A stretch of 64,000 bases of DNA from a virus, in IMG/VR virus record IMGVR_UViG_3300038312_000193; one strand, given 5' to 3'. This document shows positions 533-31,693 of the stretch, piece by piece (the stretch's first letter is position 1; each line of letters opens with the position of its first letter). The notes beneath the pieces were generated by a model. It ran no database searches, was not told where the DNA came from, and worked only from the letters and a program-made list of their open reading frames with translations. The position numbers and the translations under genes are program-made.

Positions 533-730
533 TTATGCTACTTTTTTGGTTTTATTGGTCTGTTTGTAATCTGCTATTATATTTACATCCTGGTTCTTTA
601 TCGGATCATGCCATAAATATTTTACTGTTAAGGCACATACACCAATTAATATCCATCCTGCTATGGTATATAAGGTTAATATTGTTGCTGTGTTTATGTA
701 ATCCTGCGTTGTAATTATCATCCCTATCAT
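533..730 (-). CDS. small membrane protein
   Basis: GGAGG RBS; hydrophobic segment ILTLYTIAGWILIGVCALTV. Confidence 0.65.
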   Translation of the reverse strand: MIGMIITTQDYINTATILTLYTIAGWILIGVCALTVKYLWHDPIKNQDVNIIADYKQTNKTKKVA

Positions 731-745
731 TGTATTTATACCTCC

Positions 746-1051
746 TTATATAAATCCTTCCCAGGTTTTAAACCATTCTGAATAATCATAAAGTAAACCA
801 CTTTTGTTATAGCAATTTTTTATTACTATTCTGTTCCAATTTACTTCTCCACTTTTAAATAAGTCTATAGATACCATACAATCAAGAATACATTGACGGT
901 CTTTATAGATTAATAAGGATTGAGGTTTTAATGTGTAATAATCTGCTACAAGTATGGCCTGTTGTAATTCTTCGGGCAGATCATCCCAATTCTCTGTAAT
1001 AGTTTTTAATTGTTCTGTGGGATGTGATAAGTTAATTATTGTTATTGACAT
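746..1051 (-). CDS. hypothetical protein
   Basis: GGAGG RBS, tightly packed in operon. Confidence 0.7.
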   Translation of the reverse strand: MSITIINLSHPTEQLKTITENWDDLPEELQQAILVADYYTLKPQSLLIYKDRQCILDCMVSIDLFKSGEVNWNRIVIKNCYNKSGLLYDYSEWFKTWEGFI

Positions 1052-1054
1052 TTG

Positions 1055-1267
1055 TTATACCTCCATCCGTTTTAATCTTTTTTTAATCAGATTTAATTCA
1101 TCTTGAAAGAATTTAATCTGGTTAGGGTTATTTTCTTCTTGATGATATTTAATTGCTCCCTCAGTATAACCTTTACGATATAATAATTCCTCTTTGCTCA
1201 AACTTTTAACTGTGTTATATGCATATGAATTTTTATATTCAATTTTTTCATAACCTATATCATTCAT
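1055..1267 (-). CDS. hypothetical protein
   Basis: GGAGG RBS before MNDIG. Confidence 0.7.
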   Translation of the reverse strand: MNDIGYEKIEYKNSYAYNTVKSLSKEELLYRKGYTEGAIKYHQEENNPNQIKFFQDELNLIKKRLKRMEV

Positions 1268-1336
1268 TCGATATACCTCCAATATTTTTATATTAAGGTT
1301 TTTGTGCAGAACCTTTAAAACTGCTCTGTTATTGCT

Positions 1337-1735
1337 TTAAAACAACCTTGTATATAATCCTGTTACTGAGGTAAAAATGTCTTCTAACATATCGGCATAA
1401 ACATCTTTGTATTCCTTAATGATTACAATCTCTTCATCATAAATTTTAATTCCCATTGCTTTATACTCTGGTGTTTTACATTCAGGTTTTAAAGTCTTTT
1501 TAATTCTGCTGAATGTCAAGTTATAGAGATCAAGGCCATTAAGTTGTATTTTAAGATACTGAGCCTTTGAATTATTCCTGGTTAGTTTGATGACAAGATA
1601 TACATACCCTAAATCATCATAACCGTAATACTGGAATTTACTGCCTGTCATTATTAAAAACTTACTACCTCCAATTTGTTGAATTATTGTTCTGTAATCA
1701 CCTATTCTAATTTCATTCTGTTCTGTTATTGCCAT
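1337..1735 (-). CDS. hypothetical phage protein
   Basis: AGGAGG RBS before MAITEQ; QQIGG..F..MTG and F...TGLYTRL segments recall a conserved phage family. Confidence 0.75.
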   Translation of the reverse strand: MAITEQNEIRIGDYRTIIQQIGGSKFLIMTGSKFQYYGYDDLGYVYLVIKLTRNNSKAQYLKIQLNGLDLYNLTFSRIKKTLKPECKTPEYKAMGIKIYDEEIVIIKEYKDVYADMLEDIFTSVTGLYTRLF

Positions 1736-1749
1736 TATGTAAAACCTCC

Positions 1750-2193
1750 TTATAATCCCCATTTTGCAATTTCAATTTGTGTATGTTTCCGTAGTAAGTA
1801 ATTAGTACAATCTGTTATTAAACTTTTGAGCCATTTTATCGCCAGTTCTTCATTCCAATCTAATTTTAATTCATAATCTTCAATTTGGTATTCGAGAAAT
1901 TGCAAGGATTTTAAAACCTGTTCTACGGTCTTGTAATCGTCTGTTATTTCTCTTTGCATCATTACCTTATAAATAAAATCATCCTTTGTATATACCTGTT
2001 CTGCCTGATCATCTTTATATCTGTTATTCCATGATTTAACATTCAAGCAATGTAAATAAAATAACTGTTCGGCTCTTTCTTCTGGAAATTCTGTATGTCT
2101 TTGTATAAATTCCATCTCACACATTCTAAACATTTGGATACCGTTTAGTAATCTTGTGTATCCTTTTAAATCATCAATCAAAATAACACTCAT
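1750..2193 (-). CDS. hypothetical protein
   Basis: AGGAGG RBS before MSVIL. Confidence 0.75.
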   Translation of the reverse strand: MSVILIDDLKGYTRLLNGIQMFRMCEMEFIQRHTEFPEERAEQLFYLHCLNVKSWNNRYKDDQAEQVYTKDDFIYKVMMQREITDDYKTVEQVLKSLQFLEYQIEDYELKLDWNEELAIKWLKSLITDCTNYLLRKHTQIEIAKWGL

Positions 2194-2195
2194 TG

Positions 2196-2450
2196 TTATA
2201 CCTCCTTTTCTATCGCCCAATCTGTCCATGAATCTCTTTCAATCACAAATAACTGGTTGTTAATCTTTATCTCTATTCCGTCTTTTAACGGACAATCTGG
2301 TTCACCTGTAAATGTATTCCAATGATTGACATAAACACCTTTTGAATATCTATCATTTATATGTCTACTGTACAATCTGCTTGTATTCTTATCTTTGTAT
2401 ATCTCCCTGCAATAACCTTCTTGGTTTTCGATTTTGATTAAATCTAACAT
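2196..2450 (-). CDS. hypothetical protein
   Basis: AAGGAG RBS before MLDLIK. Confidence 0.7.
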   Translation of the reverse strand: MLDLIKIENQEGYCREIYKDKNTSRLYSRHINDRYSKGVYVNHWNTFTGEPDCPLKDGIEIKINNQLFVIERDSWTDWAIEKEV

Positions 2451-2594
2451 TCGCATACACTCCTTATATACTTTATTTATATTATTAATATGATTAATAT
2501 ATAATAAAATACATACTGTCAACATGTAATTATTTTGATTTTTATACTTCATATTTAAAGGGATGTTACAACATCATAACACCCCTTATAACTT

Positions 2595-3623
2595 CTATGC
2601 TATTTCTTGTTCTCCTTGCACCTGTTCTTGTTTTCCTTGCCATTCTTCAAATAATTCCTGTAATCCATTTAACCTTCCATTAACTCTTTCTTTTTTTGTT
2701 GATCCTGCGCCACAATTATTTTTATAAGCATCTCCTGGTTTACTGTTTTTACTGTACCATGTAATGAAGTTTGTAGATTCATGTTTACTCTTTTGGGTAT
2801 TTAAAAATCCTACCATAGACGTTATGTTAATCTTAGTGCAGAATTTATTATATTTATTGTTAAAGCTATCTGCTATTACTGTAAATAATTCCTCTGTGCG
2901 GTTTAATACTTCATCTGTTATTGTGTTGGTCACAAAGAATTTTTCAACATCCTTTGCTGCAAAGGTACAAAAATCAAGTCCTGATACTAAGATAATTGAT
3001 TGAAGTATAGTCATTTGTTTATCTGATTTCTTTATTGCTCCTGGTGTAAAGTGAGCAACATCGGTAAATAGTTTATGTTCTGTTATCATTCTCTTAACAA
3101 ATTCTCGTACATTTTTCTTAGCTGATACTAAAGCAAGATGCTCTTTACTTACGACTTTACCATTATTCAAACGATAAAAAATATCATTTACGATTGATTC
3201 TTCATCATCATTATCGTCAAGTTCGATAAGTTTAAAGGCCAACATGAAACTTTTGATTTCATCCTGCACTTCTTCTGGTAGTTCTGAAAATTTCTTACCA
3301 GAGATATTGAATTTTTCACCTGTAGATTCAAGTTTGATTTGTGGGAGTTCTGTAAGCTGCCATTCATCGTTAATAAAAGAGTGAATAATAGTAAGACGTT
3401 GGAGGCCATCAATAATACTGTAAGTATTCCCTGATTCTTGTTTCTCTTGTATGGCATAAATATCAGGCACAAACATTTCTAAAATAGAATGGATTAACAA
3501 TGACTTATCTTCATTTTTCCATTGTCCTGCTGGTCTTTGCACAGGATTATCAAAAACTATAGTTCCTTTATTAATCATTGTGCTAACCTGCTTTACTGAC
3601 CATGATAAACTTTTTCTTTGCAT
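2595..3623 (-). CDS. DUF262 (ParB/Srx-like, GmrS N-terminal) domain protein
   Basis: QR..W, LIHSIL, IIDGLQRLT and IFYRLNNG motifs; own promoter. Confidence 0.85.
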   Translation of the reverse strand: MQRKSLSWSVKQVSTMINKGTIVFDNPVQRPAGQWKNEDKSLLIHSILEMFVPDIYAIQEKQESGNTYSIIDGLQRLTIIHSFINDEWQLTELPQIKLESTGEKFNISGKKFSELPEEVQDEIKSFMLAFKLIELDDNDDEESIVNDIFYRLNNGKVVSKEHLALVSAKKNVREFVKRMITEHKLFTDVAHFTPGAIKKSDKQMTILQSIILVSGLDFCTFAAKDVEKFFVTNTITDEVLNRTEELFTVIADSFNNKYNKFCTKINITSMVGFLNTQKSKHESTNFITWYSKNSKPGDAYKNNCGAGSTKKERVNGRLNGLQELFEEWQGKQEQVQGEQEIA

Positions 3624-3662
3624 TCCGAACAACTCCTTTTAATTAATTTCTATCTTATGTTT

Positions 3663-3691
3663 ATTTTATACCTTTGGTTTCATGTTGTCAA
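3663..3691 (-). promoter_or_regulatory. sigma-A promoter
   Basis: TTGACA-17-TAAAAT. Confidence 0.75.
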
Positions 3692-3722
3692 CATTAAAAT
3701 AAGAATAAACGATAATTATTTT

Positions 3723-3932
3723 TTATCCTGTTGGTTCAAGATCATGCGAAATACACCAGGAACAAAATACATCTATATTAGTTCCTATTCCTTGTTGCTG
3801 TCTTACTTGTTGGTAATTATTCCAATCACAATACCAACTACCAGCTTTGTAATAGGTCTTAATTCCGTTTACATAGCGGATTTTTAGATTACTAGTTGAC
3901 TTTGTTTTGTTGCTCTTGTTTTTTGTTCTCAT
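3723..3932 (-). CDS. hypothetical protein
   Basis: AAGGAG RBS. Confidence 0.55.
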   Translation of the reverse strand: MRTKNKSNKTKSTSNLKIRYVNGIKTYYKAGSWYCDWNNYQQVRQQQGIGTNIDVFCSWCISHDLEPTG

Positions 3933-4030
3933 TTTATACATCTCCTTTTTATTTTTTGTATTTTAATCCTTCTTAATATGTCGGCTCTGTCATTGTCGGC
4001 ACATTAAGCAGGATTAAACCTGCTTATAAT

Positions 4031-4231
4031 TTATATTATTGTTATGTCAAAATTCCACTCAATACAATCCTTTGTTAAATATCCATTAATATGATCTCCT
4101 TCTCTTCCTGTTAATTTCCAGCCTATTTGTTTAAAAAACTCATAGTATTTATAAAAATATTCATTATTTGACTTTTTAAATATTTCCCATTTTTTACCGT
4201 TTGCTTTATCTGTAATAGTTTTAATCAACAT
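4031..4231 (-). CDS. hypothetical protein
   Basis: GAGGAGG RBS. Confidence 0.7.
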   Translation of the reverse strand: MLIKTITDKANGKKWEIFKKSNNEYFYKYYEFFKQIGWKLTGREGDHINGYLTKDCIEWNFDITII

Positions 4232-4279
4232 TTTTTAACCTCCTCTTATAACTCGTTACCTAATTGTCATTTGGTTTAA

Positions 4280-4570
4280 TTATATTATTTGTTTTGCTAA
4301 TGTTTCCGTTAATGGGAATCTAACTTGCTTAAATACATTGTCGTAAAACCTTGGATAATTAATATAGTCTGGAATAATCTCGCTACCATCAGGTAATAAA
4401 ACTGATTGACTATAACTGCCCAATGACTTGATGCATTCCTCAATGCTGTTATAGACTTTTATACAATCAAAAGTATTGTGTTCAATCTCATAGGGTGATC
4501 TGTTATTCCATGCCCAATCATTAATTTCTCTGATCCGCATTTTACCATCATAAAAAGCTTGATAATGCAT
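4280..4570 (-). CDS. hypothetical protein
   Basis: AGGAAGG RBS. Confidence 0.7.
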   Translation of the reverse strand: MHYQAFYDGKMRIREINDWAWNNRSPYEIEHNTFDCIKVYNSIEECIKSLGSYSQSVLLPDGSEIIPDYINYPRFYDNVFKQVRFPLTETLAKQII

Positions 4571-4836
4571 TATTATCCTTCCTTTCCTTCTCCTAAAATT
4601 TTACTGTACATGAAATTTGCTTTCTATCATGTTATTTTAATGTAATTAATGCCATTCGATTAAGATCAATTGTTAATATATTGAAATGATCTAGTTTTTT
4701 AATTAAATCTGCATCATACCAGATAGGTTCTCCGTTTTCTTCAATCTCTTTTGTTATTCTGTTAATCCAATATTGCTTATTAAATACTTTAGTTTTCAAT
4801 TTGTTCAACTCCTTATTTGTTTAATTCGTTATATTG

Positions 4837-4865
4837 ATTATAAACCCTGCTATTCATATTGTCAA
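4837..4865 (-). promoter_or_regulatory. sigma-A promoter
   Basis: consensus TTGACA-17-TATAAT. Confidence 0.8.
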
Positions 4866-4992
4866 TATGATTTTGCTACTATCTTTATATTTTTTATTTA
4901 ATTCTCTGAAAAATAAATGCCATTATTCAGGCATTCACAAAACGGCAAATAGTCATAAAATCAATCTTTTGTAATGTTCGGGAATTGTTCTG

Positions 4993-5391
4993 TTATGCTG
5001 ATTTATTACTTATATATTGATAATATTTATCTGGTAATTTTACCATTAATAATAACCTGTTTGTTATTTGTCTATGCTTTTTGCAATGTCTCCATTGTTC
5101 TATATGTGCTAATTCGTGACAGATTACTTCTTCTAATGTTTGACCGTTTAATTCCCATGTGCTGGTAATACTATCTAAAATAAAGTATGTATAGCATTCA
5201 TGGACAAAAAATTCATCAATTGTTATATGGTAAATATCAAATTGGTTTCTCCAACATATTCCTAATGATTCTTTTGATTTGCCTTTTAAAGTGCTATGAT
5301 CCATAATTGTTATATTAATATCCATAGTGCATTCGATTTGAGTTAATGTTTTTTGTACTGTTTGATCAAAATATTCTTGCTCTGTTATCAT
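4993..5391 (-). CDS. SprT-like HExxH zinc metalloprotein
   Basis: VICHELAH followed by H...H; AGGAGG RBS. Confidence 0.7.
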   Translation of the reverse strand: MITEQEYFDQTVQKTLTQIECTMDINITIMDHSTLKGKSKESLGICWRNQFDIYHITIDEFFVHECYTYFILDSITSTWELNGQTLEEVICHELAHIEQWRHCKKHRQITNRLLLMVKLPDKYYQYISNKSA

Positions 5392-5635
5392 GCTTTTATA
5401 CCTCCTTTCTTTATAATATCATATTCCTGCTATACTGTTATGCTGTTTTACTTAATAATTTCCGTAGTTCTTGTTCTGTTATTTGATGTTGCACAAATAA
5501 GGTTATTAATTTAGTTTTCGTCAATGTAGCATTACCTCCTTCCTGCTGTTATTGTATTTAATTCCTTTTTAGAGTGCTAAACTGTTATTGTTATTTATAT
5601 TATGTATATGTTTAGCACTCAGGAAAAGAATTAAA

Positions 5636-6007
5636 TTATATTGCTAATCTTTGTTTAATCTCCTGCTCTTTTTCAAATCCTGTTATGTCAATTTCTCCTG
5701 ATTTAATACTGTTTTTTAAATCTCTGATAGCACACGGACAAAAACCTTTTTTATTAAATGTTTCATTTTTTACTTCTTGCCAGAATTTTTTATCTTCCAT
5801 TCTTTTCTTTTCCTTAATTGTTTTGATTCTATTATTAAATTGATTTAAAGTATTTTCTAGTGCTGAGTCAGCCTTTTCTATTCCGTATTCTTCTAATACT
5901 TTATTGTATCGGTTTATTACCTCTTCTTTTGTGATTCCTGTTAGTTCGGCTGTTATTGCTGTTTTAACTATTTGATCAACCAATTTGTTAAATTGTTTTT
6001 CTAACAT
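5636..6007 (-). CDS. hypothetical protein
   Basis: AGGAGG RBS. Confidence 0.7.
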   Translation of the reverse strand: MLEKQFNKLVDQIVKTAITAELTGITKEEVINRYNKVLEEYGIEKADSALENTLNQFNNRIKTIKEKKRMEDKKFWQEVKNETFNKKGFCPCAIRDLKNSIKSGEIDITGFEKEQEIKQRLAI

Positions 6008-6028
6008 CTTTTATTATTCCTCCTTTTA

Positions 6029-6409
6029 TTATGCTATTTCACTTTTATATTGTATTCTGTTTATTAGATCATTACATAGTTCTGTTATAGCATTGGCCTG
6101 TTTTTCACTCTCCGCATTAAAAGGTATTTCGTCTTTTATTAATTCTAAACTGTTAATGTTATACTCAAAAATGTATTCTGGCATACAGTAGGATATTGTC
6201 TCAGCTAACATATTAAATCTTCCCAGGATAACAGGGTATTCTTGCCAATCAATATTATTTTCAATTTGTATTATATCCTTTGTAGAGATTAAACCAGATA
6301 GCATATTTTTTGCTACTCTGACCATTTCTTTTTCTACTATATTGTTTTTATATGCCTGATAATAATATGAGTAATTACTAAGTAATTGATCTTTTTCTTT
6401 TTTGTTCAT
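6029..6409 (-). CDS. hypothetical protein
   Basis: GGAGG RBS. Confidence 0.7.
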   Translation of the reverse strand: MNKKEKDQLLSNYSYYYQAYKNNIVEKEMVRVAKNMLSGLISTKDIIQIENNIDWQEYPVILGRFNMLAETISYCMPEYIFEYNINSLELIKDEIPFNAESEKQANAITELCNDLINRIQYKSEIA

Positions 6410-6462
6410 CCTGTTATACCTCCAATCTATTTATTGATCCAATCGGTTATTTGGTGTTATTG

Positions 6463-6666
6463 TTATACTAATTCTAAAAAATCAATTTTAATATTTCGAG
6501 TAACACCATTTACTTTTACTTTAGCAATATTACCAGATTCTTTTGTATTTATTGCCATTACTTTTCCTTTTTCAATTGGTACTAATTTGATTACAGGATC
6601 AAACTTTTTAACTCTGTTATTATATTTTTCATTAGTCTTTACGGTATCACCTATTTTAATATTCAT
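6463..6666 (-). CDS. small beta-rich (KOW/SH3-like) protein
   Basis: IKIGDTVK...GKV pattern; AGGAGG RBS. Confidence 0.6.
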   Translation of the reverse strand: MNIKIGDTVKTNEKYNNRVKKFDPVIKLVPIEKGKVMAINTKESGNIAKVKVNGVTRNIKIDFLELV

Positions 6667-6881
6667 TTCGTTACCTCCTTCTGTTATTTGTTTTTAAATT
6701 GCATGTAGTCATTAATATCTAGCAAGCTGTAAACATAACCTAATAAACTGTTATGCTTATATATTGCGTATGTTTTTTCGTTTTGATCGTATATTAAGGT
6801 TATGTTATGCTTATTTTCGTAGTGTTTAATTGCTTGGTGTTTACTCATTTTTATTAACCTCCTTCTGTTATTCTGTTATTA

Positions 6882-6910
6882 ATTTTATCATATCAGTAAT
6901 ATGATAGCAA
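6882..6910 (-). promoter_or_regulatory. sigma-A promoter
   Basis: TTGCTA-17-TAAAAT with extended TG. Confidence 0.65.
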
Positions 6911-6936
6911 GATAAATTTATTTTGTTGTTATAGTG

Positions 6937-7278
6937 TTATGCTGTTAATAAATCGTTATATCTTACTACTCCTTTTATATAGCTCCCGATATCTCTAATT
7001 TTAGCAGGTAAATAATATGGCAATTCTTTTTGTTGCAATGTTTTATTGAGGTTATACCATTTTATAAAATAGTTATGTTGATATTCGGTGAATGATTTTA
7101 TTAGTTTTTGTATTTCTTCAATTGTGAGTGATCCTTCATATTTTCCGTATATGCTGTTATTGTTTATTAATTTGTCAAGTGATACATATAATTCGTTAAT
7201 TTTATAACAATAGTCTTTTATTTGTTCTTCAAGTAAAAACATATACTGGTTATAGTCTGATTCTGTTATTTCTATCAT
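6937..7278 (-). CDS. hypothetical protein
   Basis: GAGGTG RBS. Confidence 0.7.
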   Translation of the reverse strand: MIEITESDYNQYMFLLEEQIKDYCYKINELYVSLDKLINNNSIYGKYEGSLTIEEIQKLIKSFTEYQHNYFIKWYNLNKTLQQKELPYYLPAKIRDIGSYIKGVVRYNDLLTA

Positions 7279-7370
7279 ATTGTTATCACCTCTTTTCTGT
7301 TATAGTTTATTATAATCCTTTATAAATAGCACTACAATTTATTTTATTACTGTAATGCTATCTAAAAAAA

Positions 7371-7565
7371 TTATAATTCCGTATGTAGTAATAACCTAGC
7401 AGGATCAAGACGGTTAAATATATCCTGCACATTAACCATGTTGTCGCTGTTATAAAATTTTTCAGATTGTAAATACTGGTATAGTTCTGTTATTAGTTCG
7501 GCTGATTCTGTTATACGGTTTTTTAGTTCCTGGTTATCTTCCTGTAATTGTTTAATATAATTCAT
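7371..7565 (-). CDS. hypothetical protein
   Basis: AGGAGG RBS. Confidence 0.7.
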   Translation of the reverse strand: MNYIKQLQEDNQELKNRITESAELITELYQYLQSEKFYNSDNMVNVQDIFNRLDPARLLLHTEL

Positions 7566-7584
7566 CGTGTTACCTCCTGTTATT

Positions 7585-7836
7585 TTAGTTTTCTATAAAC
7601 TCTACTAAATGTAAGCCTTGATGCCAATTATATTTTGATATCTGACCACTAAAAATATTATAATCAGCATCGACAAACAAGGTAATACCATTTACATCTT
7701 TTTTTATTTCTTCCCGATATGGCTTGATATATGTTTTGCCTAATAGATGATGTGTATCACCTGTTATGTCGTAAACATCCGCAAATAAACCATTATCAGT
7801 TAATACGCTTGCTTTAATATCAGTAATATTAATCAT
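7585..7836 (-). CDS. hypothetical protein
   Basis: AGGAGG RBS. Confidence 0.7.
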   Translation of the reverse strand: MINITDIKASVLTDNGLFADVYDITGDTHHLLGKTYIKPYREEIKKDVNGITLFVDADYNIFSGQISKYNWHQGLHLVEFIEN

Positions 7837-7847
7837 TCTGTTACCTC

Positions 7848-8066
7848 CTATTTATGTAATATAATTTTATTTTGTTGTTCCCAACCTTTTAACCAGTTAT
7901 TTGTTATTTGTTCTTTTAATTCGGGAAATGTACTCCATAACCATTGACAACATGTGTCAAGTGCTGGTTGCCGATATCCTGCCTTACACCTGTAATTTTT
8001 ACCACAAATAAAAGCAATATTTTCTGCTTGATTTTTAGTGGTTTTTAAAAGTGATTGATAATTCAT
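7848..8066 (-). CDS. hypothetical protein
   Basis: GGAGG RBS. Confidence 0.7.
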   Translation of the reverse strand: MNYQSLLKTTKNQAENIAFICGKNYRCKAGYRQPALDTCCQWLWSTFPELKEQITNNWLKGWEQQNKIILHK

Positions 8067-8080
8067 TATATTACCTCCTA

Positions 8081-8452
8081 TTATAATTTTACTGCTATAG
8101 TTCCATTACGAACCCAACAATCCGAATTGCCTATAACTGTTACTATTGTTATAGTTCTGTATGTTATATTGCAGACTACGCTAAAATTATTTTGTTTGTC
8201 CATGATGAAAATATCACGGTTAGAACCACTGTAATCTGTTATGGTTTTTTGGCCTAATGATAGGATTGATCCTGTTACCTGATACAAGTCAATTTGTCTT
8301 TCTTGTAGTCGCTGTTCTGCGTGATTTGTTAAGCGAATAGAGTAGGTTTTGTTTTGGATTGTAAATGACAATATCATTATTCCTGGTTTCCTCCTTCTGC
8401 TACTGTTATGGGAATTATAGGATTTTTGGGTAATGGTACTATTATTATACAT
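8081..8452 (-). CDS. DUF4258-like protein
   Basis: LTNHAEQRLQERQI motif and terminal IVTV strand. Confidence 0.6.
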   Translation of the reverse strand: MYNNSTITQKSYNSHNSSRRRKPGIMILSFTIQNKTYSIRLTNHAEQRLQERQIDLYQVTGSILSLGQKTITDYSGSNRDIFIMDKQNNFSVVCNITYRTITIVTVIGNSDCWVRNGTIAVKL

Positions 8453-8576
8453 TGTTTCACCTCCTTGTATGTTAATAAATCCTTTATTGAGTGCTATATA
8501 TTTTAATTATATTACTGTTATACTGTTATGCTTTTATTAGCACTCTAAAAAGATTTAATTATATTGTTATTGTGTA

Positions 8577-8855
8577 TTATGCCTCTACTAATTCAAAATG
8601 ATGTCCACTATATCCTTTATCTAAAATACTAACAGAATATAATTTGCCAGTTTTACATGGTGGCAGGTTATAATTTGGATATTGTACATGATCATGTGGT
8701 GGAAAATAAGCAAAATTGTCTTTTGTGGCCTTCAACATTATTTTTTTACCGTTGTTGTTCTCATGTTGGTATACTACCTTGGAATTTTCAACGTGTGCAG
8801 TTTCAAATACTTCATGAGGTTTGTTATTCATGCCTAGATAAATTATTTTTTTCAT
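8577..8855 (-). CDS. hypothetical protein
   Basis: AGGAGG RBS. Confidence 0.7.
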   Translation of the reverse strand: MKKIIYLGMNNKPHEVFETAHVENSKVVYQHENNNGKKIMLKATKDNFAYFPPHDHVQYPNYNLPPCKTGKLYSVSILDKGYSGHHFELVEA

Positions 8856-8980
8856 TATTTGATCCTCCTATACTTCTATTATTTTACTTCTCTGTTATAG
8901 TTTTTAGAGGTTATGTTAATACCCTCTATAGAGCCATCATTTTATATTACCATTTTATGATGACTCTAACAAGGTACTAA

Positions 8981-9487
8981 TTATGCTATTGCTTGTCTTT
9001 GTTCTCTTTCATCTCTGTTAACCATTTCGCTACCATATAAATTGCGAATTTCTTCTATAGTTAATTCTTTTTTGGATTTTTTGCGGAAAGTTCCAGGTTT
9101 CCAGTACCAAGCTAATTTTTTGCCTGAGAAGGTGAAACCTAACTCTTTTAATATGTCTTTATGTTGTTTGGTTTCGCCTGTTATCCAAAGCCATGTGCCA
9201 CAAAGTTCTATTGTTATTCCTTCAAGGTTTATTATTTTGTCTATGATTTCTCTGTATCCATCAAAAGGATCGAAATTTTGTGTATACTCTTTTTTGGTTT
9301 CATGGTTGTAACCTGTAAAAGTTTTGTTCTTGAATGCTTCATACTGTAGGTTAATCTGCTTCATTGTTTCGGTGGTATCATTGTCATGGTTATGGTCTGG
9401 ATGAAATTTTTGTGCAAGTTCTCTGTAACGTTTTTTAATTTCCTCTATTGAGTTACAATCGGAAAAATAGTTTAACATTTTTATCAA
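8981..9487 (-). CDS. J-domain (DnaJ-like) protein
   Basis: IKKRYRELAQKFHPD, HPD motif. Confidence 0.85.
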   Translation of the reverse strand: MIKMLNYFSDCNSIEEIKKRYRELAQKFHPDHNHDNDTTETMKQINLQYEAFKNKTFTGYNHETKKEYTQNFDPFDGYREIIDKIINLEGITIELCGTWLWITGETKQHKDILKELGFTFSGKKLAWYWKPGTFRKKSKKELTIEEIRNLYGSEMVNRDEREQRQAIA

Positions 9488-9570
9488 TCCTTCCTTATGT
9501 TTATTTTATTGGTTTAATATCCTCTATAGAATACATTAACTGTTATATGCTAATGTATTCTAACAAGATA

Positions 9571-9936
9571 CTAAATAAAATATAGTTCGTTATTAACTTC
9601 CAAACTAATTGCATCCTGGTTTGATATTTCTTTTAATTCTTCTCCTATTTCTATAGCTGCTTCGATGCTATTTTCTAGGTTATTACTATAACTGAAAACT
9701 ACTACTATTTTTTCCTTTATCAATTCTCCTGCTACACTTTTCCAATAGCCTAACGCCTGTGTTGATGTTGCTCCTCCGTTAACTTCACTAAATTTACTAG
9801 CTGTTAAGTCTACCATTTTTTGAATTAAATCAGTTGGTAGTTCCTGGTTGTTTTTGTCTCTGGTTGGTACATATAAACTTACTTTGTGAGATAGTTTAAA
9901 AAGGTTTTTTAAGGTTTTTTTGTTTTCGTTATTCAT
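9571..9936 (-). CDS. hypothetical protein (DUF3574-like, tentative)
   Basis: GGAT...GYW...E and NQDAISLE motifs; AAGGAG RBS. Confidence 0.6.
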   Translation of the reverse strand: MNNENKKTLKNLFKLSHKVSLYVPTRDKNNQELPTDLIQKMVDLTASKFSEVNGGATSTQALGYWKSVAGELIKEKIVVVFSYSNNLENSIEAAIEIGEELKEISNQDAISLEVNNELYFI

Positions 9937-10020
9937 TTTGTTATAATCTCCTTTTTGTTTTTTATTTAAGGGAATAACCCTTATTTTTTGAATCAAATTT
10001 CGGTTTGGTGTTGAGTGGTT

Positions 10021-10197
10021 TTATAATCCTGCTAATTTTAATCTGGTAAACTCTTTTGCTGCCTCGGTATAAGATGTATACTTTTTGTCGTTGAATTTGT
10101 TACGGACAATGTATTCACCTGCTTCATTAATTCCTAATTGTAAGATACCTTTAAAATTAAGTTCACGATTTTTTAATACTTCAATTTTCTCTCTCAT
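10021..10197 (-). CDS. small hypothetical protein (58 aa)
   Basis: GAGGTG RBS, MREKIEVLKN...KLAGL*; below track cutoff. Confidence 0.6.
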   Translation of the reverse strand: MREKIEVLKNRELNFKGILQLGINEAGEYIVRNKFNDKKYTSYTEAAKEFTRLKLAGL

Positions 10198-10302
10198 TTT
10201 ATCACCTCTTTCCTTTTAATGAATTCTATATATATTATATTCTACATCGCTTTTAAATATCCTTCTTTTTTATAAATTTATTTTATATTTTTAATGTGCT
10301 AG

Positions 10303-10545
10303 AAATGCCTATATTACGGGATTTGTAGGGTATGCATAAATATTCATAAAAATAATTTTTTATACATTTATATGGTTTAAATGCCTATATAATGGGGTTT
10401 GTGAAATATTAGTACGTTGATGTAAGGTATACATTAAATCATGTATATTATACAGGTTTATGAATAGATATGCATTGATTGAAGTAGGTTTATGCTCTTT
10501 TATACCCTATGAGGGTATGTAGAAATGGCTTAATATTGGGGGTTT
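10303..10545. repeat. three imperfect 7-8-7 palindromes AAATGSC-N8-GGNNTTT
   Basis: at 10303, 10379, 10523; further copies at 13137, 25609, 48397. Confidence 0.6.
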
Positions 10546-11171
10546 GTGAGGTATGGAAAAATGAGGTTGTGTAGTGCGTTTTAAGGTATGTATATTTATT
10601 TTATTGATATAATAGTCGTGAGAGTGGGAATGTTGGGTGTAGGTGGTATAATGTAGGTATGGTGGGATTTTTGGGGATTTTGGTTTGTACAAGGTTTATG
10701 CATCGATAATGTATATTTATATTGTGGGTTTGGTTGTGGCCTGGATTGATTTATCTAATATCTTACTAACTAATCATTATAATAATATTGTATCGTCTTA
10801 TATTTATTATATAATAAGTTATTATATTTTTATGTTGCTATCTTATTATCTTATTATATTACTAACATATTATATTATTATTATGTGATATTATTATGTT
10901 GATATACTAACATCATATTAAGTTTATATAATTGTATCAACATATCATATTATAATATTACCATATTATATTCGCATATTAATATTTTATTATTTTAACA
11001 ATTTAATATCATATTATTATAATAACTTAATATCTTAATATTATAATAACATAACTTTTTATTATCTTATAATTATAATATGATGTTGGTTTAATATGGT
11101 ACTAATATTATAATATAGTGGTATAGTTAGGTTATATGTTAGTTAGATTGTAGGATATTAAAATAATAGGC

Positions 11172-11200
11172 AAAAAAAATAAACCCCATGCGGGGTTTAT
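11172..11200 (-). terminator. intrinsic terminator
   Basis: ATAAACCCC/GGGGTTTAT hairpin plus T-run on minus strand at the stop of 11197..11421. Confidence 0.75.
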
Positions 11201-12732: not shown

Positions 12733-13230
12733 AATGGTATTAGTTCCTCCTTTTATATGGTATATAATTTGTGGCGTATGCATAGCATAGGTAATTATAT
12801 TATAGCATAGTTGGTTGTGATTTGCAATTTGTTTATATTATAGATATAATGGGATTTATAACTGTATTAGTTGAAGTAGTACAGTTAATACAATATTACT
12901 TCGATGGCAAATTTCCTGTTATCAAATCCGAATATTTAGAAGTTTATCTAAATATCTAAATATTATTCGTTTGGGCGTATTCTGGCAGGTTGTGGCCTGA
13001 TACTATGAGTAGATACCAGGATTAATCAGGATCAATTCTATATCATTAGTTTGTGCAGCTTAACCCGTATTTATTCCCTTCATTCCTGCCATAATGCAGG
13101 ATAACACATATTATCTAGTATTAATTAATAGCTTGTAAATGGCTATATATCGGTATTTGTAGCTATATTCAAACATTTATTACATTACCAATATATTATT
13201 ATCCAGGCTAGACGGGGGTACTTTACAAAA

Positions 13231-13259
13231 AGAACAACCGTTTGTAGAACAGATGTTTG
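13231..13259. promoter_or_regulatory. two tandem LexA (Cheo)-like boxes
   Basis: AGAAC-AACC-GTTTG and AGAAC-AGAT-GTTTG. Confidence 0.55.
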
Positions 13260-13704
13260 CCTATCTCTTCTATCAACAGACTATGAAAATTTTTCATACC
13301 GACAATCTTAATTCTTTCAACAAATACCCATCGTTCTAATTTCGTTTAATACCCCAACCTACAAAACATCCTATAACTCCCAACCATCTTAAAATCAACC
13401 TTATCAACTCCTAAACCATCTATATAATCAAAATTCAAACCCACTCAAACGCCCAATGAATCAACATTTACAACTATTCCTTTACTCAACTACTACTATA
13501 TATAATAACAATTTCACCGAATCAACTTTTAACCTATCTAACCAATCTAAAAACAACATTCTATTAACAACCAAAATTCCTTTAAAATCCTACTATTTAA
13601 CTAACTCTAACATATAATTAACGCCCACTCTGGATTAATTCACCGACAACCAACTATCAAAATAATCATATCTAAAAAAATTTCACATTTATTTTATAAT
13701 TTTC

Positions 13705-13733
13705 TTGACACTTCTAATATTATCTTGTATTAT
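13705..13733 (+). promoter_or_regulatory. sigma-A promoter of recombinase
   Basis: TTGACA-17-TATTAT. Confidence 0.7.
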
Positions 13734-13771
13734 TATATTAATAATTTAACTAAAACAAAGGAGATAACAAA

Positions 13772-14659
13772 ATGATCAATAATAATGAACCCAATCCAAA
13801 TCCTTTAATCCAATACACCCAACATTTAATCCAACAAAATAAATCCACCAATACAATTAAATCTTATACTAAAGATATAACATCATTTTTTGCTTATTTC
13901 AACCAAACTCATAACATACCTCAAACATTAACTCGTTCTCAAATCATCCAATACAAACAACACCTACTTACTACAAAAAATAATGCTAAATCAATTAATC
14001 GTACCTTATCATCTTTAAAATCCTATAATGAATTTCTAGTTTTCACACATCAACAAAATGAAGTGGTTGTATTATCTATAGACTATATTAAAATTCAAAA
14101 ACAACTTGTATCTCCTACTAACACTTCTACTAAAGATGCTATTCGTTTTATGGAGAAGGTAAAAAAGAATGAACCTATAAGAAATTACTATATAGTTGCC
14201 TTACTATTAAATACTGGTCTTAGAATATCTGAAGCATTAAGTATTGAATTGGATGATATTAATTTTAAAAAAGAAAATCTAAGGGTTATCGGCAAAGGAT
14301 CAAAACAAAGAATTATTCCTTTAAATAAGAAAGCAATTGAAATTATTAAATTGGTGATTGAAGATAGAAAAAATTATAACTATGCTTTGAATAAATTAAA
14401 TAGTAAGTATTTATTTCTAAGCAATAAAAGTGAAAAATTAGAAAGTTGCACTATTGAGAGAATATTCAATAAATATAGTAAGACTATTACACCGCACAAA
14501 TTGCGTCATTGTTTCAGTTCTAATTACTTAGAAAGTGGAGGTAGCATTCGGGAACTTCAATATATACTCGGACACTCCAGCTTAAATACAACTTCTATTT
14601 ACCTTAATCCAAATGAAATAAGTATGCACAGGAATATAAATAATAGTTGTATAGGTTAA
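13772..14659 (+). CDS. tyrosine recombinase (XerC/D-like)
   Basis: TGLRISE, GKGSKQR, HKLRH, LGH, TTSIY catalytic motifs. Confidence 0.95.
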   Translation: MINNNEPNPNPLIQYTQHLIQQNKSTNTIKSYTKDITSFFAYFNQTHNIPQTLTRSQIIQYKQHLLTTKNNAKSINRTLSSLKSYNEFLVFTHQQNEVVVLSIDYIKIQKQLVSPTNTSTKDAIRFMEKVKKNEPIRNYYIVALLLNTGLRISEALSIELDDINFKKENLRVIGKGSKQRIIPLNKKAIEIIKLVIEDRKNYNYALNKLNSKYLFLSNKSEKLESCTIERIFNKYSKTITPHKLRHCFSSNYLESGGSIRELQYILGHSSLNTTSIYLNPNEISMHRNINNSCIG

Positions 14660-21999: not shown

Positions 22000-24813
22000 T
22001 TGCATAATAGACAGTTTTATACATATAAATTTAAATCTTCTAGGTTAAAAGAATTTAATTATAATATTAATATAAATTTTGATATAGCAAAAGAATTAAA
22101 AGAAATAGTAGCTTTGGCTGATAATCAAATCCTTAGAAGTATTCGTGATATTAGAAAACATACTATAAAATATGATCATATTGAAAAACTTTATCAAGAA
22201 AGAGATATTAGAAAAAAGAAATATCATTCTATTGAAAATTCACAAAGAATTAATCAAATACAGAATAGAATAAATAGAACGATGTTTATTCCAGATTACA
22301 TAACTGTAGTAATGGAACATCGTTCTCATTACAAAAAAATATTTAAACAAGGAATAATTATAAACAATAAACGGTATTTTAGATTAAGCTGTTCGTCTGG
22401 ACAAGCCAGAGTTTCAACAGTAGTCTTATGTTGTGAAGAAATAATTGATGAATTAAAAAAGAGATTAAACAATGATAGAGATTTAACTAAGTCTTTTGCA
22501 CCGAGTAAGTTTAATGCTTATTTTGGTCTATCAGGGTCATCAACATATTTAGTAAGTGAACCTAAATTTATTGTAGTAAAAGATTTTATTAATATTGATA
22601 AATTTAAAGCAAATTATGTTATAGAAAAAGATTGGGATATTGATGATGAAATAAAAACACGTGAAATTGAAATGGAAATGAATAGAACTGATGGTATGGG
22701 GTTGATAAGTCCAACTCAAGCAGAAAAATGGGCAAAAGAATTAGGGTTAGATTATATCCCCTCTCAGTTTTGTGTACGTCAGAGTTTCGTGAAAGGGATG
22801 CTCTGCACTTTCCCCATACATCAATTTTGTGAAGAAATTAATAATGGTAATTATATAGTAGATACTATATATAAAGATTCTGAGGATAATTATATTAAAG
22901 CTGATTTAAGAGATTATGATGTAATTATCACAGAATCACAATTCAAATTATGGGATAGTTATTCGGATATTGATACTTATATTAATAATTGTCATAAGAA
23001 TAAATTATATTGGGGGGTGGCACAGTATACTCCTAAAGAAGCAAAACATATTTTAAAACTTAATTACCAATTTATTCAAACTTTAAATTTAAAACAAGAA
23101 AGCATAGAAAAATTAGCACAGCAATTTGTAGATTGGATATGTGGCGTTTCTTATGATGATATCTATTATACGTTACTGTTTTTACTTGGAGTAAATAATA
23201 GTGAATATAGTATTAAGAAATACTTACAAAATAGTGATAATTATTGGATTAAAAGTTTATTAATTAATCCAGAATTAAAGAATGATAAATATATTCGTAC
23301 AAAAATTCGAGAATTATTAAAGATTAGAATTCAAAATGGATGTATGGGTGATATTTTTGTAGATGGTAACTTTCAGGTTTTAGTATATGATCCCTTTGGA
23401 TTTATGCAACATGTTTGTGGATTAGAGGTTACAGGGTTACTTCAAAAAGGAGAGTTTTATTCTAATTATTGGAATGAACGTGGTGTAAAAATAATTAATG
23501 GTATGCGTTCCCCTTTAACTTATCGTAGCGAACATGTAATTATGAATTTAAAACAAGATGATTTAACTGAAAAATGGTATAGATATTGTAAATTAGGTAT
23601 TATTTTAAATTATCATGGTCATGAAGTTGTAAATTTTGGAGGAGCAGATGTTGATTTTGATATTTTAGCTACAACATCTAATCAGGAGATTATTAACGGA
23701 GTATTCAAAAATGAACTGCCAGTTGTTTATGATCCACCCACTCCTGAAAAATTAGTATTTACAGATGAAGATTTATATAGAGCAGATACATTCTCTTTTG
23801 GTTCTATAATTGGGTCAATAACTAATAAAAGTAGTAATGGATATGCTTTATTATCTAATATAGAAAAACAATATGGTATAGATAGTAGAGAATATAAAAT
23901 GACATTATCTCGATTAAAACAATGTTGTAAAGCACAGTCAGCTCAGATTGATAAAGCTAAAATTGGCAGAGAAGTAAAAGGTATTCCTAAGTTGTGGGTA
24001 TATAAGCAAAAAATTAACATGGATGAAAATGGTAACATATTAGATTCTGATGAAGAAATAAAGGAAAAATTATTTTATAATAGTATTTTGCTTAATAAAT
24101 ATCCTTACTTTTTTAAGTATTTATATAAAAATGCAAGAAAGAAATATAATAAATATTGCGAAGTAAATGAAATTACATGTCATCAAAAGTTTAAAATGTC
24201 ATTTAAAAAACTTAAAGAGTTAGATAGATTATCATTTGAGCAAAAAGAGTTTATTGAAAATTATTACAAGTATATGCCTTTAACTTATAGTGATAGTCCG
24301 ATGAATTTATTGTGCAGATATATCGAGGGTATTAATTTTGAGATTAATCAAAAAATAAAATCTTTAGATAATAATGACATAATTAATTTTTATAAAAGTA
24401 AAGATCATCAATATACTGTTGAGCAGTATGAAGAAATTGTAAAAATATTAAATCAACATATAAATAAAGTTAAATACAATAAAATTTTATTTGACCAAGA
24501 TATTGCTGATTATAATTTTGATGAAAACTCTATACAAGAATTTAAAACAGATAATGATATATTAGAACAAGATATAAATAATGTTTGTAGTGATGTTTAT
24601 TTAGTTACTAATGTTTTATTGGATTATTTTTATAAGGATAAACCAAGTGCAAATAAAGATGTTTTATGGAGTACATATGGTAAATATATTTATAATAATG
24701 TAAAAGGAAATATAGTGGATACTCCCCTATTCCCTTTCCCTGATAATAAGGGAGAAATAAATTATCTAGGGTTAAATTATTCTTTAAAGGAGTTAAATAT
24801 TGATGAATTATAA
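22000..24813 (+). CDS. yonO: YonO-like single-subunit two-barrel RNA polymerase
   Basis: RTDGMG, KGML, MRSP, GADVDFD, QIDKAK motifs; size; position upstream of late genes as in SPbeta. Confidence 0.85.
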   Translation: MHNRQFYTYKFKSSRLKEFNYNININFDIAKELKEIVALADNQILRSIRDIRKHTIKYDHIEKLYQERDIRKKKYHSIENSQRINQIQNRINRTMFIPDYITVVMEHRSHYKKIFKQGIIINNKRYFRLSCSSGQARVSTVVLCCEEIIDELKKRLNNDRDLTKSFAPSKFNAYFGLSGSSTYLVSEPKFIVVKDFINIDKFKANYVIEKDWDIDDEIKTREIEMEMNRTDGMGLISPTQAEKWAKELGLDYIPSQFCVRQSFVKGMLCTFPIHQFCEEINNGNYIVDTIYKDSEDNYIKADLRDYDVIITESQFKLWDSYSDIDTYINNCHKNKLYWGVAQYTPKEAKHILKLNYQFIQTLNLKQESIEKLAQQFVDWICGVSYDDIYYTLLFLLGVNNSEYSIKKYLQNSDNYWIKSLLINPELKNDKYIRTKIRELLKIRIQNGCMGDIFVDGNFQVLVYDPFGFMQHVCGLEVTGLLQKGEFYSNYWNERGVKIINGMRSPLTYRSEHVIMNLKQDDLTEKWYRYCKLGIILNYHGHEVVNFGGADVDFDILATTSNQEIINGVFKNELPVVYDPPTPEKLVFTDEDLYRADTFSFGSIIGSITNKSSNGYALLSNIEKQYGIDSREYKMTLSRLKQCCKAQSAQIDKAKIGREVKGIPKLWVYKQKINMDENGNILDSDEEIKEKLFYNSILLNKYPYFFKYLYKNARKKYNKYCEVNEITCHQKFKMSFKKLKELDRLSFEQKEFIENYYKYMPLTYSDSPMNLLCRYIEGINFEINQKIKSLDNNDIINFYKSKDHQYTVEQYEEIVKILNQHINKVKYNKILFDQDIADYNFDENSIQEFKTDNDILEQDINNVCSDVYLVTNVLLDYFYKDKPSANKDVLWSTYGKYIYNNVKGNIVDTPLFPFPDNKGEINYLGLNYSLKELNIDEL

Positions 24814-25597
24814 ATATAGAGAACATGAATATGCTGAATTGATATATAACAATGGTTTTCAATCAAAATATATTCCTACAGAATTAAGATTGCTAGTATT
24901 ATATTTTAGAGATGTATTAGAGATGAAACCTAAAGAACGTGAATATAGTTTATATAAATTTTGTAATAAATATATTCCTGATTTCAAAAAAGAAAATTAT
25001 TATAAGTCTATTAAAACAGCGTTAAGAGCAGGATTAAATAAGGAACAAAAATTAGTTACTATTAATAAAATTGATATATATCAATCAGAATTAGATTATA
25101 TTAATTCATTAGAAATTAATCAAGAGTATAAGAAGGTTATATTTACATTTCTGGTTCAGTTGAAGTTAAATAAAATAGTTTATGAATATAAGCGAAATAA
25201 AGAGTATGAGATGTTGTATTTTTATGGTGGTAAAATTAAATATAACATGATTAAAAATATGTCAAACATACCTAAAGTAATATCTTTAAATGATGAAGTA
25301 ATTAATACTTTAAACGAGTTGGGGTTAATTACTATATTACATAGAGGTAAGATTAGTCTTGATTATATTAAGAATTGTATATCAGAGGGTGAAGTAGTAA
25401 TTGAGATAACTGATTTTGAAAATGTGGGTTTGCATTTAGATTATTATAATGGGGTTAAGGGAGTAATTAAGTGCGGTGGTTGTGAAAAAATTATAAAAAC
25501 TAAAAATAACAGACAATTGTATTGTAAAGAATGTGCGAAGGAAATAGATAGAATAAAAGCAATAGAGCGTATGAAAAATATAAGATGTTCGATTTAG
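24803..25597 (+). CDS. conserved protein with C-terminal zinc finger
   Basis: CGGC...YCKEC; overlaps RNAP stop. Confidence 0.8.
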   Translation: MNYKYREHEYAELIYNNGFQSKYIPTELRLLVLYFRDVLEMKPKEREYSLYKFCNKYIPDFKKENYYKSIKTALRAGLNKEQKLVTINKIDIYQSELDYINSLEINQEYKKVIFTFLVQLKLNKIVYEYKRNKEYEMLYFYGGKIKYNMIKNMSNIPKVISLNDEVINTLNELGLITILHRGKISLDYIKNCISEGEVVIEITDFENVGLHLDYYNGVKGVIKCGGCEKIIKTKNNRQLYCKECAKEIDRIKAIERMKNIRCSI

Positions 25598-31582: not shown

Positions 31583-31693
31583 TAGAAGAGAGGTTTTTAG
31601 GGGTCGCTCCCCTATTCTCCGTACCCTCTCTTCTATTTTTATTTAAAGGGTTAGTACGGAGAAATAAAAATGTACGGAAAGAGGATGATAAAG
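31583..31693 (+). promoter_or_regulatory. structured endonuclease leader B
   Basis: 11-bp outer stem, GGGGTCGCTCCCC, TTCTCCGTAC complementary to GTACGGAGAA (31654) and GTACGGA (31672). Confidence 0.75.

Follow-up and report, generated by a model that had tools for sequence, protein, structure and literature searches.

ATAACAG is a positively selected, strand-specific word on the sense strand of a promoter-proximal small-gene block in phages with a YonO-type RNA polymerase

What does a short, one-sided word do in dozens of copies within and between the small genes of one phage arm? The question is raised by the IMG/VR virus record IMGVR_UViG_3300038312_000193, of which a stretch of 64,000 nucleotides was analysed (hereafter the window); its left arm repeats the hexamer TAACAG, read on the + strand as CTGTTA. 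A sequence-only reading had counted about 51 CTGTTA against about 2 copies in the opposite orientation in 1-9.8 kb, about 40 of them in 4.4-9.6 kb, and about 14 coding-strand copies in the 50-kb right arm, and our recount reproduced these figures. The + strand of the window carries 54 CTGTTA, 51 of them within 625-9806 (40 between 4446 and 9540) and 3 in the remaining 54 kb, together with 2 TAACAG within 1-9.8 kb and 14 in the right arm, where + is the coding strand. Because the left-arm genes all lie on the - strand, the word is TAACAG on their coding strand. It is preceded by A in 39 of the 51 domain copies, and in 147 of 187 when relatives are pooled, giving the heptamer ATAACAG. We report that selection maintains ATAACAG as a cis-acting word, specific to the sense strand of this promoter-proximal block of small genes.

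Comparison with first-order Markov expectation for the 12.8-kb left arm revealed 51 TAACAG where 7.2 are expected and 39 ATAACAG where 3.4 are expected. The two are the top-scoring 6-mer and 7-mer of the arm, outranking the Shine-Dalgarno words. Among the 210 heptamers of the same composition, ATAACAG ranks first in the window's motif domain and 112th in the right arm, where 5 copies in 50 kb represent a neutral level. Expressed as density, the excess is 36-fold (99 copies in 28.9 kb versus 14 in 148 kb). Depletion outside the domains, as expected of a harmful word, was considered and rejected: 55 copies were seen versus 64-79 expected, which is neutral because an in-frame TAA forbids one of the reading frames.

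Strand specificity is strict. In the domains of the window and of a relative, contig G003, 135 copies are sense and 6 antisense, versus 33:13 elsewhere in the two genomes (P = 2e-13), and the intergenic copies alone stand at 53:2. Density in these two domains reaches 10.4 per kb between genes versus 3.6 per kb within them. Inside the window's genes, 34 copies were found versus 12.6 +/- 2.9 (maximum 22) in 1000 synonymous codon shuffles that kept the proteins, and versus 4.6 +/- 2.1 when codon order was permuted within genes; intergenic copies numbered 15 versus 1.2 expected from an intergenic first-order Markov simulation. The recurrent Ile-Thr-Glu/Asp/Gly motif to which the sequence-only reading had drawn attention describes the 23 window copies in frame 1, encoding (I/L/V)-T-(E/D/G...), but not the 11 in frame 2, encoding N-(S/R), nor the 17 between genes. 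The copies thus occupy both of the reading frames that avoid an in-frame TAA.

In the window and in G003, spacing between copies is Poisson-like (coefficient of variation about 1) with no excess of pairs, the shortest distances being 8, 8, 12 and 21 nucleotides (nt) in the former and 8, 9, 12, 14 and 17 nt in the latter; a periodic or paired arrangement is therefore excluded. Alignment of 187 copies from the window and its relatives revealed no flanking consensus or second element within +/-25 nt, which excludes an extended or bipartite motif. Single-mismatch variants delimit a strict TAACA core, with A > T > G at position 1 and a preference for G at position 7, where A, C and T are weakly tolerated. 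The shuffle, frame, spacing and strand controls therefore place selection at the nucleic-acid level: each copy stands alone, is read from one strand and is limited by coding constraints. An artefact of composition or codon usage is excluded by the Markov, synonymous-shuffle, codon-permutation and same-composition-word controls, and our text searches of the literature found nothing relevant on this word or phenomenon.

A search of IMG/VR with the window's RNA polymerase, a YonO-type enzyme encoded divergently from the motif domain, yielded 32 loci. In the closest clade (polymerase 71-91% identical), ATAACAG is enriched divergent from the polymerase gene in every contig that reaches far enough (G001, G002, G003 and G005; Table 1), and in G003, where the co-oriented arm measures 73 kb, it is limited to the first 19 kb. 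Neither homologues of the window's left-arm proteins nor nucleotide similarity could be found in the arms of these four contigs, so that shared sequence ancestry of the domains is excluded. ATAACAG nevertheless ranks first of 210 in each of six domains, which together hold 166 copies in 70 kb, while the best unrelated word of the same composition reaches 32.

The association extends to much more distant polymerases. Contig G010 (polymerase 31% identity) carries 20 TAACAG in 14 kb. G015, whose polymerase is about 22% identical by local tblastn only (E = 5.6e-6) and was not found in species-representative genomes, carries 35 copies, 20 of them intergenic, in the first 13.4 kb of its 197 kb. In G020 (28% identity), 57 copies and no antisense copy lie in 15.5 kb with 40 small open reading frames (ORFs), distributed as 20 intergenic and 20 and 17 in the two frames; its polymerase and partner genes lie about 4.5 kb past the divergence point.

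Motif-first scans of 2.9 million viral contigs in IMG/VR, the first of which required three nearby ATAACAG, recovered G015 and G020 independently of the polymerase. The second scan added G051 (96% complete, polymerase 27% identical), in which about 54 copies run through the contig ends, and G047 (18 copies), whose polymerase is 30-34% identical and split into N- and C-terminal ORFs at 23.1-26.8 kb, an arrangement also annotated for Clostridium phage c-st. All dispersed hits that could be assessed, namely G015, G020, G047 and G051, bear the polymerase. Three further contigs (G048, G049 and G050) have domains but no detected polymerase; they are fragments, and the family-profile search also missed the known positives G010 and G015. 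Of the remaining hits, most were tandem repeats within coding sequence and some were giant structural proteins; both kinds were excluded.

In all 10 polymerase-bearing contigs, the polymerase gene lies on the strand opposite the word. The exact heptamer is shared by at least 9 other phage contigs, which carry it in the corresponding arm within the 10-20 kb nearest the promoter, and its presence in unrelated gene blocks of distant phages therefore marks it as a real, selected signal. Enrichment, strand specificity, independence of protein sequence, random spacing without a partner element, confinement to 10-20 kb, neutrality elsewhere, conservation in the absence of gene homology and linkage to the YonO lineage are all direct observations.

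The word could nonetheless have had no function, as a by-product of amino-acid or codon usage, composition or shared ancestry, and such by-products do occur. In three unrelated contigs (G016 at 2.8-20.3 kb, G017 at 27.9-33.6 kb and G018 at 15-24 kb), a TAACAG excess lies in giant repetitive structural proteins, almost wholly in frame 1 and with up to 41 copies in a single ORF of 2123 amino acids (aa); this excess is a protein-level effect that mimics the motif in simple counts. The excess studied here, by contrast, survives synonymous and codon-order shuffles, is strongest between genes, uses two frames, ranks first in six domains and recurs in blocks without protein or nucleotide similarity, which refutes the explanation and leaves it with practically no probability. 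The proposal that a selected signal is layered on the code was thus borne out: the excess withstands codon- and dinucleotide-based nulls, and coding-strand density is not equal across the genome, the right arm being neutral.

The word is not universal among phages with this type of polymerase. ATAACAG is lacking in clades whose polymerases are 52-59% identical to that of the window (G007, which equals G027, G008, G031 and about a dozen others), and likewise in SPbeta and five cultured YonO phages (BUCT082, c-st, PMBT24, CB473P1 and TR-TP1); SPbeta has no polar heptamer. Clade B carries a weaker variant with an AACAG core, AAACAGA in G006 and [T/G]AACAG in G009, in which the 3' core is preserved and the 5' positions differ. 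In the motif-less G027, the region at about 62-74 kb (about 128-138 kb in G007) shows other polar 7-mers: CAGAAGG (14:0), CACAAGG (10:0), TACAAGG (10:0) and CATGCAG (9:0). These may be copies of a repeated spacer element, or another word that serves a comparable function.

In which form, then, is the word read? The sequence-only reading had considered both DNA and RNA without choosing. The explanation that we rank first, tentatively and at less than even confidence, is that the word acts on the transcripts of the block as a class label, presented as single-stranded AUAACAG. It takes this rank because of the strand specificity, the intergenic excess, the independence of the copies, the density step at an operon junction and the neutrality elsewhere. 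Density tracks the predicted transcription units, decreasing from 7.2 per kb in the densest unit to 3.0 per kb (13 copies) in the 4.3 kb downstream (600-4930), past a terminator-like hairpin and a consensus sigma-A promoter that is predicted to restart transcription where the density drops. The boundaries of the dense unit were drawn at promoter-like and terminator-like sites. The upstream site includes TATAAT and matches a putative sigma-H-like pattern at 10263, and the hairpin was judged by eye, the consensus terminator scan not listing it. The word is, moreover, independent of gene content, ranking first of 210 in domains without homologues.

Position within the putative RNA is also suggestive. 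As the sequence-only reading described, copies stand beside Shine-Dalgarno sites and in hairpin loops (9540, 8515/8523 and 5582), and word sites are predicted to be slightly more unpaired than same-composition controls (0.636 vs 0.593, P = 0.03; marginal). Just 5' of the Shine-Dalgarno sites, at -25 to -12 from start codons, 15 copies were found versus 4.8 expected, a 3-fold enrichment. Placement as a translational enhancer was excluded, the pattern relative to start codons being the general intergenic excess only. Several spacers contain long hairpins right after stop codons, and in three of these spacers the loop exposes the word. A family of long imperfect hairpins in this position lies at 9485-9573, 8853-8983, 7276-7373, 5389-5638 and 3930-4033, two of them having alike outer stems (TTGTTAGA...TCTATAGAGG). 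The members of this family look like processing sites or factor-dependent terminators. No clear inverted gene was found inside any motif domain.

The layout of the genome suggests that the motif block is early. If the word is a label on RNA, the many independent copies on each polycistronic transcript would offer multiple sites to a factor that binds or cleaves RNA sequence-specifically, and the block would be handled as a unit whatever genes it currently holds. The most plausible use would be shut-off of the block at the early-to-late transition, comparable to the action of T4 RegB on GGAG. The PIN-PhoH RNase-helicase would be a candidate reader, and a host RNase or RNA-binding protein would be equally possible. 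The reading as RNA, the identity of the reader and the consequence are each steps that we infer.

T4 RegB is an endoribonuclease that cuts GGAG in early mRNAs and inactivates that class as a whole. Its targets resemble ATAACAG in being a short word of one temporal class, concentrated in intergenic and Shine-Dalgarno regions, and the heptamer is likewise enriched in a presumed-early block, at higher density between genes than within them. However, the RegB word has 4 nt and coincides with the Shine-Dalgarno sequence, whereas ATAACAG has 7 nt, recurs 3-7 times per kb and lies mostly inside ORFs. Pfam and PHROG scans of about 40 window proteins revealed no RegB-like family, although no systematic search for RegB was made. 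The resemblance is accordingly one of concept only.

The PIN-PhoH gene stands behind the polymerase and partner genes and is a core gene of the family, present in most members, including motif-less ones. A preprint attributes, citing earlier work, sequence-specific RNase and helicase activity to mycobacterial PIN-PhoH, which by analogy may serve as a precedent for an RNA reader of this kind. The same preprint reports AC[A/U][A/U][G/C] as the preference of mycobacterial PhoH2.

Several observations weigh against a label on RNA. The RNA-accessibility signal is weak, the transcript boundaries are predictions from sequence, and the G003 domain has no obvious terminator or promoter at its distal end. 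ATAACAG does not match the PhoH2 preference as given in that preprint. The incomplete contigs G001 and G003 yielded no PIN-PhoH, which also occurs, with the polymerase and the partner, in the motif-less G007/G027 and G008/G031; a presence/absence comparison revealed no protein cluster specific to motif-positive genomes. Furthermore, a fast-evolving reader encoded by the phage would hardly be expected to preserve one identical heptamer where the polymerases share no more than 22-31% identity. Another candidate reader, the 606-aa gene upstream of the polymerase, was rejected since it is missing from G003.

The lineage link is best explained by a different reader. The polymerase and the gene after it are the only proteins common to all motif-bearing contigs compared, and an alignment of 19 relatives shows the pair retained throughout, even at 22% identity. 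The partner product has invariant CxxC...CxxC pairs (a C-terminal zinc ribbon) and a basic tail, and its predicted fold (mean predicted local distance difference test score, pLDDT, 91) comprises a helical N-domain, a winged-helix-like middle domain with weak winged-helix matches (Z 6-6.7) and the zinc ribbon. No convincing PDB match or annotated family was found for it, and the modelled protein is likely a polymerase cofactor.

The word may accordingly be a signal on DNA for a holoenzyme of the YonO-type polymerase and this zinc-ribbon/winged-helix partner, an explanation that we rank second and consider somewhat doubtful. It could serve as a minimal dispersed promoter or initiator, sparing the genes of a hypervariable block a promoter of their own, or as a sequence-specific pause or termination word by which the phage polymerase controls transcription of the block. 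The polymerase in every assessable dispersed motif-first hit, its opposite strand in 10/10 contigs, the AACAG core kept by clade B and the 3-fold enrichment abutting Shine-Dalgarno sites all speak for it, as does a precedent for very short promoters. This precedent is the non-virion polymerase of phage AR9, whose promoter, AACA-(6N)-U-A/G, is read on the template strand (PMC5449584). AR9 is a Firmicutes phage with its own non-canonical two-barrel polymerase and dedicated specificity partner, and its very short word shares the AACA core.

The likeness ends at the arrangement of the sites. At 3-7 per kb and with about 60% of copies in ORFs, the density of ATAACAG far exceeds that of any known promoter, and neither a second element nor a start-site consensus stands at a fixed distance, unlike in AR9. 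The late region has only background copies, with no ATAACAG ahead of late operons, so that a late promoter carrying the word is excluded; yet late operons are the class that the SPbeta enzyme transcribes. SPbeta YonO is reported to transcribe its late operon from a single start site, by a promoter that is not known (PMC5467207). Terminators in sense orientation would lack a clear rationale in a block that does not need this polymerase, and the absence of the word from relatives with 52-59% identical polymerases and from SPbeta and the five other named phages also argues against the holoenzyme as reader.

Chi, recognised by RecBCD or AddAB, and the FtsK-orienting polar sequences (KOPS) and SpoIIIE recognition sequences (SRS) are short, polar words dispersed in bacterial chromosomes. 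Like ATAACAG, Chi and KOPS are strictly polar, randomly dispersed and indifferent to gene boundaries, with a density under selection. In a third explanation, the word is a polar signal in DNA that a tracking machine recognises on the duplex or on unwound strands: a Chi-like site for AddAB/RecBCD, a KOPS/SRS-like site for FtsK/SpoIIIE (for example in forespore entry) or a site for lagging-strand priming from an origin in the divergent control region. ATAACAG is oriented away from this non-coding, AT-rich, repeat-bearing region, a possible origin, as Chi and KOPS are, and conservation of the heptamer across very divergent phages is what a host-encoded reader would lead one to expect.

The distribution of the word nevertheless makes a polar DNA signal unlikely. 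Chi and KOPS are G-rich, extend over the host genome and are mirror-symmetric about the origin, whereas ATAACAG occupies a single 10-20 kb block of one phage arm and is neutral elsewhere. The mirror orientation on both sides that Chi would need was not found: the right arm is neutral, and in G003 only 19 of 73 kb of the co-oriented arm carry the word. Nor was there a genome-wide polarity of one copy per several kb, as for KOPS/SRS, polar 7-8-mers that converge on a terminus or dif site, the density within the domain being 10-50 times above the need of Chi or KOPS. In four bacterial genomes with related prophages, which may not be the true hosts, ATAACAG reached 1.1-1.8x the reversed-word control, with forward and reverse counts about equal. 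A host signal would be open to any phage, but the motif-first scans revealed no non-YonO phage with a dispersed domain, and a density step at an operon junction also speaks against it. The neutral other arm and the bacterial counts thus weaken the Chi-like and translocation versions of the DNA site suggested by the sequence-only reading.

Phage T7 carries its EcoP15I sites in a single orientation, which evades Type III restriction. This is likewise an asymmetric short word in one orientation in a co-transcribed phage region, but evasion of this kind accounts for orientation only, not for the 36-fold excess.

An oriented duplex operator is a further and very improbable explanation, in which a phage protein similar to MrpR, either the partner or an integrase-like protein, would coat the block by head-to-tail binding. 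The winged-helix-like domain and zinc ribbon of the partner fit such a role, as does an integrase-family gene opening the right arm in the window and in G020. SPbeta offers a parallel, its early region being silenced via a repeated element and a recombinase-like repressor: the SPbeta repeated element (SPBRE) of its early arm is bound by the master repressor MrpR/YopR (PMC10516654). SPBRE resembles ATAACAG in being a cis-element repeated within the early arm of a phage with a YonO polymerase; a phage protein reads it and so controls the arm as a whole. It is, however, a 15-bp duplex operator at about ten promoters and not in genes, whereas ATAACAG has 7 nt, 50-85 copies and strict strand specificity and lies in genes. 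Duplex binders normally accept both orientations, and the 135:6 bias rules out an orientation-blind duplex site; 7 bp without a partner site at fixed spacing would also offer very little to bind. The suggested resemblance of TGTTAT to the WalR half-site was not supported: direct repeats 11 nt apart, as in the WalR box (TGTWAH-N5-TGTWAH), do not occur, and hardly any copy has the opposite orientation.

A more general proposal, which we regard as doubtful, is that the heptamer is a portable address label: any gene residing in the hypervariable block would acquire copies, and a reader conserved in the lineage would recognise the block. That reader would be the two-barrel polymerase holoenzyme or the neighbouring RNase-helicase, and regulation (expression, silencing or decay) would stay constant during gene turnover, resting on word density across a multi-gene region rather than on discrete sites. 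By their defining tests, the heptamer belongs neither with Chi or KOPS nor with known phage-polymerase promoters, SPBRE or WalR boxes, and in this sense represents a new kind of signal, although once its reader is known it may turn out to be an extreme form of an RNA or polymerase signal specific to one class.

If the word is indeed what it seems, a cassette of 10-20 kb would be regulated or protected through the density of a 7-nt strand-specific word over its coding sequence. The genes of the region are wholly replaced between relatives while the word stays, a logic unlike that of promoters, operators and terminators. The YonO-type polymerase phages of Clostridia and Bacilli have been little studied, and the word would give a first lead on their function and on what their conserved module of polymerase, zinc-ribbon partner and PIN-PhoH reads. 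Early and accessory phage blocks tend to hold anti-defence and host-takeover genes, and in practice the word is a signature for such a block in metagenomic phage contigs. Finally, it shows a non-coding signal shaping codon choice and even amino-acid choice (Ile-Thr-Glu, Asn-Ser).

Table 1. Coordinates of the motif domains and associated features in the window and in four relatives.
Contig	Feature	Position	Strand	Remarks
Window	Motif domain	625-9806	-	51 TAACAG (39 ATAACAG) on coding strand, over about 25 small genes with the intervening spacers
Window	Densest unit	4931-10240	-	7.2 per kb (38 copies, 5.3 kb); apparently a single polycistronic operon
Window	Promoter-like site	10237-10265	-	AGGATATTT, 12-nt spacer, GAATATAAT; precedes first gene of the dense unit
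Window	Terminator-like hairpin and T run	4908-4936	-	End of dense unit; RNAfold of spacer 4797-4995
Window	Sigma-A consensus promoter (predicted)	4837-4865	-	TTGACA, 17 nt, TATAAT; 12/12 matches
Window	Non-coding control region	10198-11196		C/A-rich, G-poor tract with repeated units, then nearly pure A/T patch
Window	Isolated ATAACAG	12916-12922	-	Divergent intergenic region; + strand CTGTTAT
Window	DUF262/GmrSD-N protein	2595-3623	-	Motif domain
Window	DUF4258 (toxin-like) protein	8081-8452	-	Motif domain
Window	DnaJ-domain protein	8981-9487	-	Motif domain
Window	Integrase-family gene	13772-14659	+	Opens right arm; likewise in G020
Window	YonO-type single-subunit two-barrel RNA polymerase, 937 aa	22000-24813	+	Pfam RdRP PF05183; divergent from motif domain
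Window	Polymerase partner gene	24800-25597	+	Overlaps end of polymerase gene; 264/265-aa product
Window	PIN-PhoH fusion (RNase and helicase type)	25949-27160	+	Behind polymerase and partner
G003	Motif domain	53.9-73.5 kb		85 TAACAG; essentially none in other 53 kb of co-oriented arm
G001	Motif domain	about 12-17.5 kb		16 copies in 5.5 kb; 6 more in first 2 kb
G005	Motif domain	about 2.5-5 kb		10 copies in 2.5 kb
G002	Motif domain	about 56-77.5 kb		19 copies in 21.5 kb

The window, which derives from an ENA metagenome assembly, is part of a phage with 27.6% G+C and two divergent arms. Its left arm holds about 28 small genes, nearly all without known families; the DUF262/GmrSD-N, DUF4258 and DnaJ genes are consistent with an accessory or host-interaction block. 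The right arm runs from the integrase-family gene through a helicase, the polymerase, the 265-aa partner, PIN-PhoH and an HU-like gene to terminase, portal and tail genes. By tblastn, the polymerase matches yonO of SPbeta-like phages at 25-27% identity (E-values down to 9e-26) and the annotated YonO homologues of phage c-st. This homology, with the HU-like, terminase and portal genes downstream, identifies the window, as far as sequence can tell, as a YonO-type polymerase phage. No near-identical DNA was found among deposited phages, and Rfam and tRNA scans of the window returned nothing; the closest matches to its polymerase are in metagenome-assembled genomes of Bacilli, Angelakisella and Lachnospiraceae.

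The control region between the arms has outward-facing C/A-rich, G-poor leaders on both sides (10198-11196 and 12784-13771), with repeats such as ATAGGCATTT and AATGCCACATA, and could be an origin, a pair of Rho-loading leaders, or both. Similar tracts precede the domains of G003 (72.3-75 kb) and G005 (4.5-4.9 kb). A rightward promoter-like site (12822-12850) precedes the isolated ATAACAG at 12916 by about 60 nt. This copy may be there by chance, or a rightward leader RNA carrying the complement, CUGUUAU, is a possible antisense seed; lone copies in the divergent region also occur at 73508 in G003 and 44269 in G002, with none in G001 and G005. Among the late genes, two HNH/homing-endonuclease-like genes lie at 31670-33007 and 41365-42468, the former two genes upstream of the terminase.

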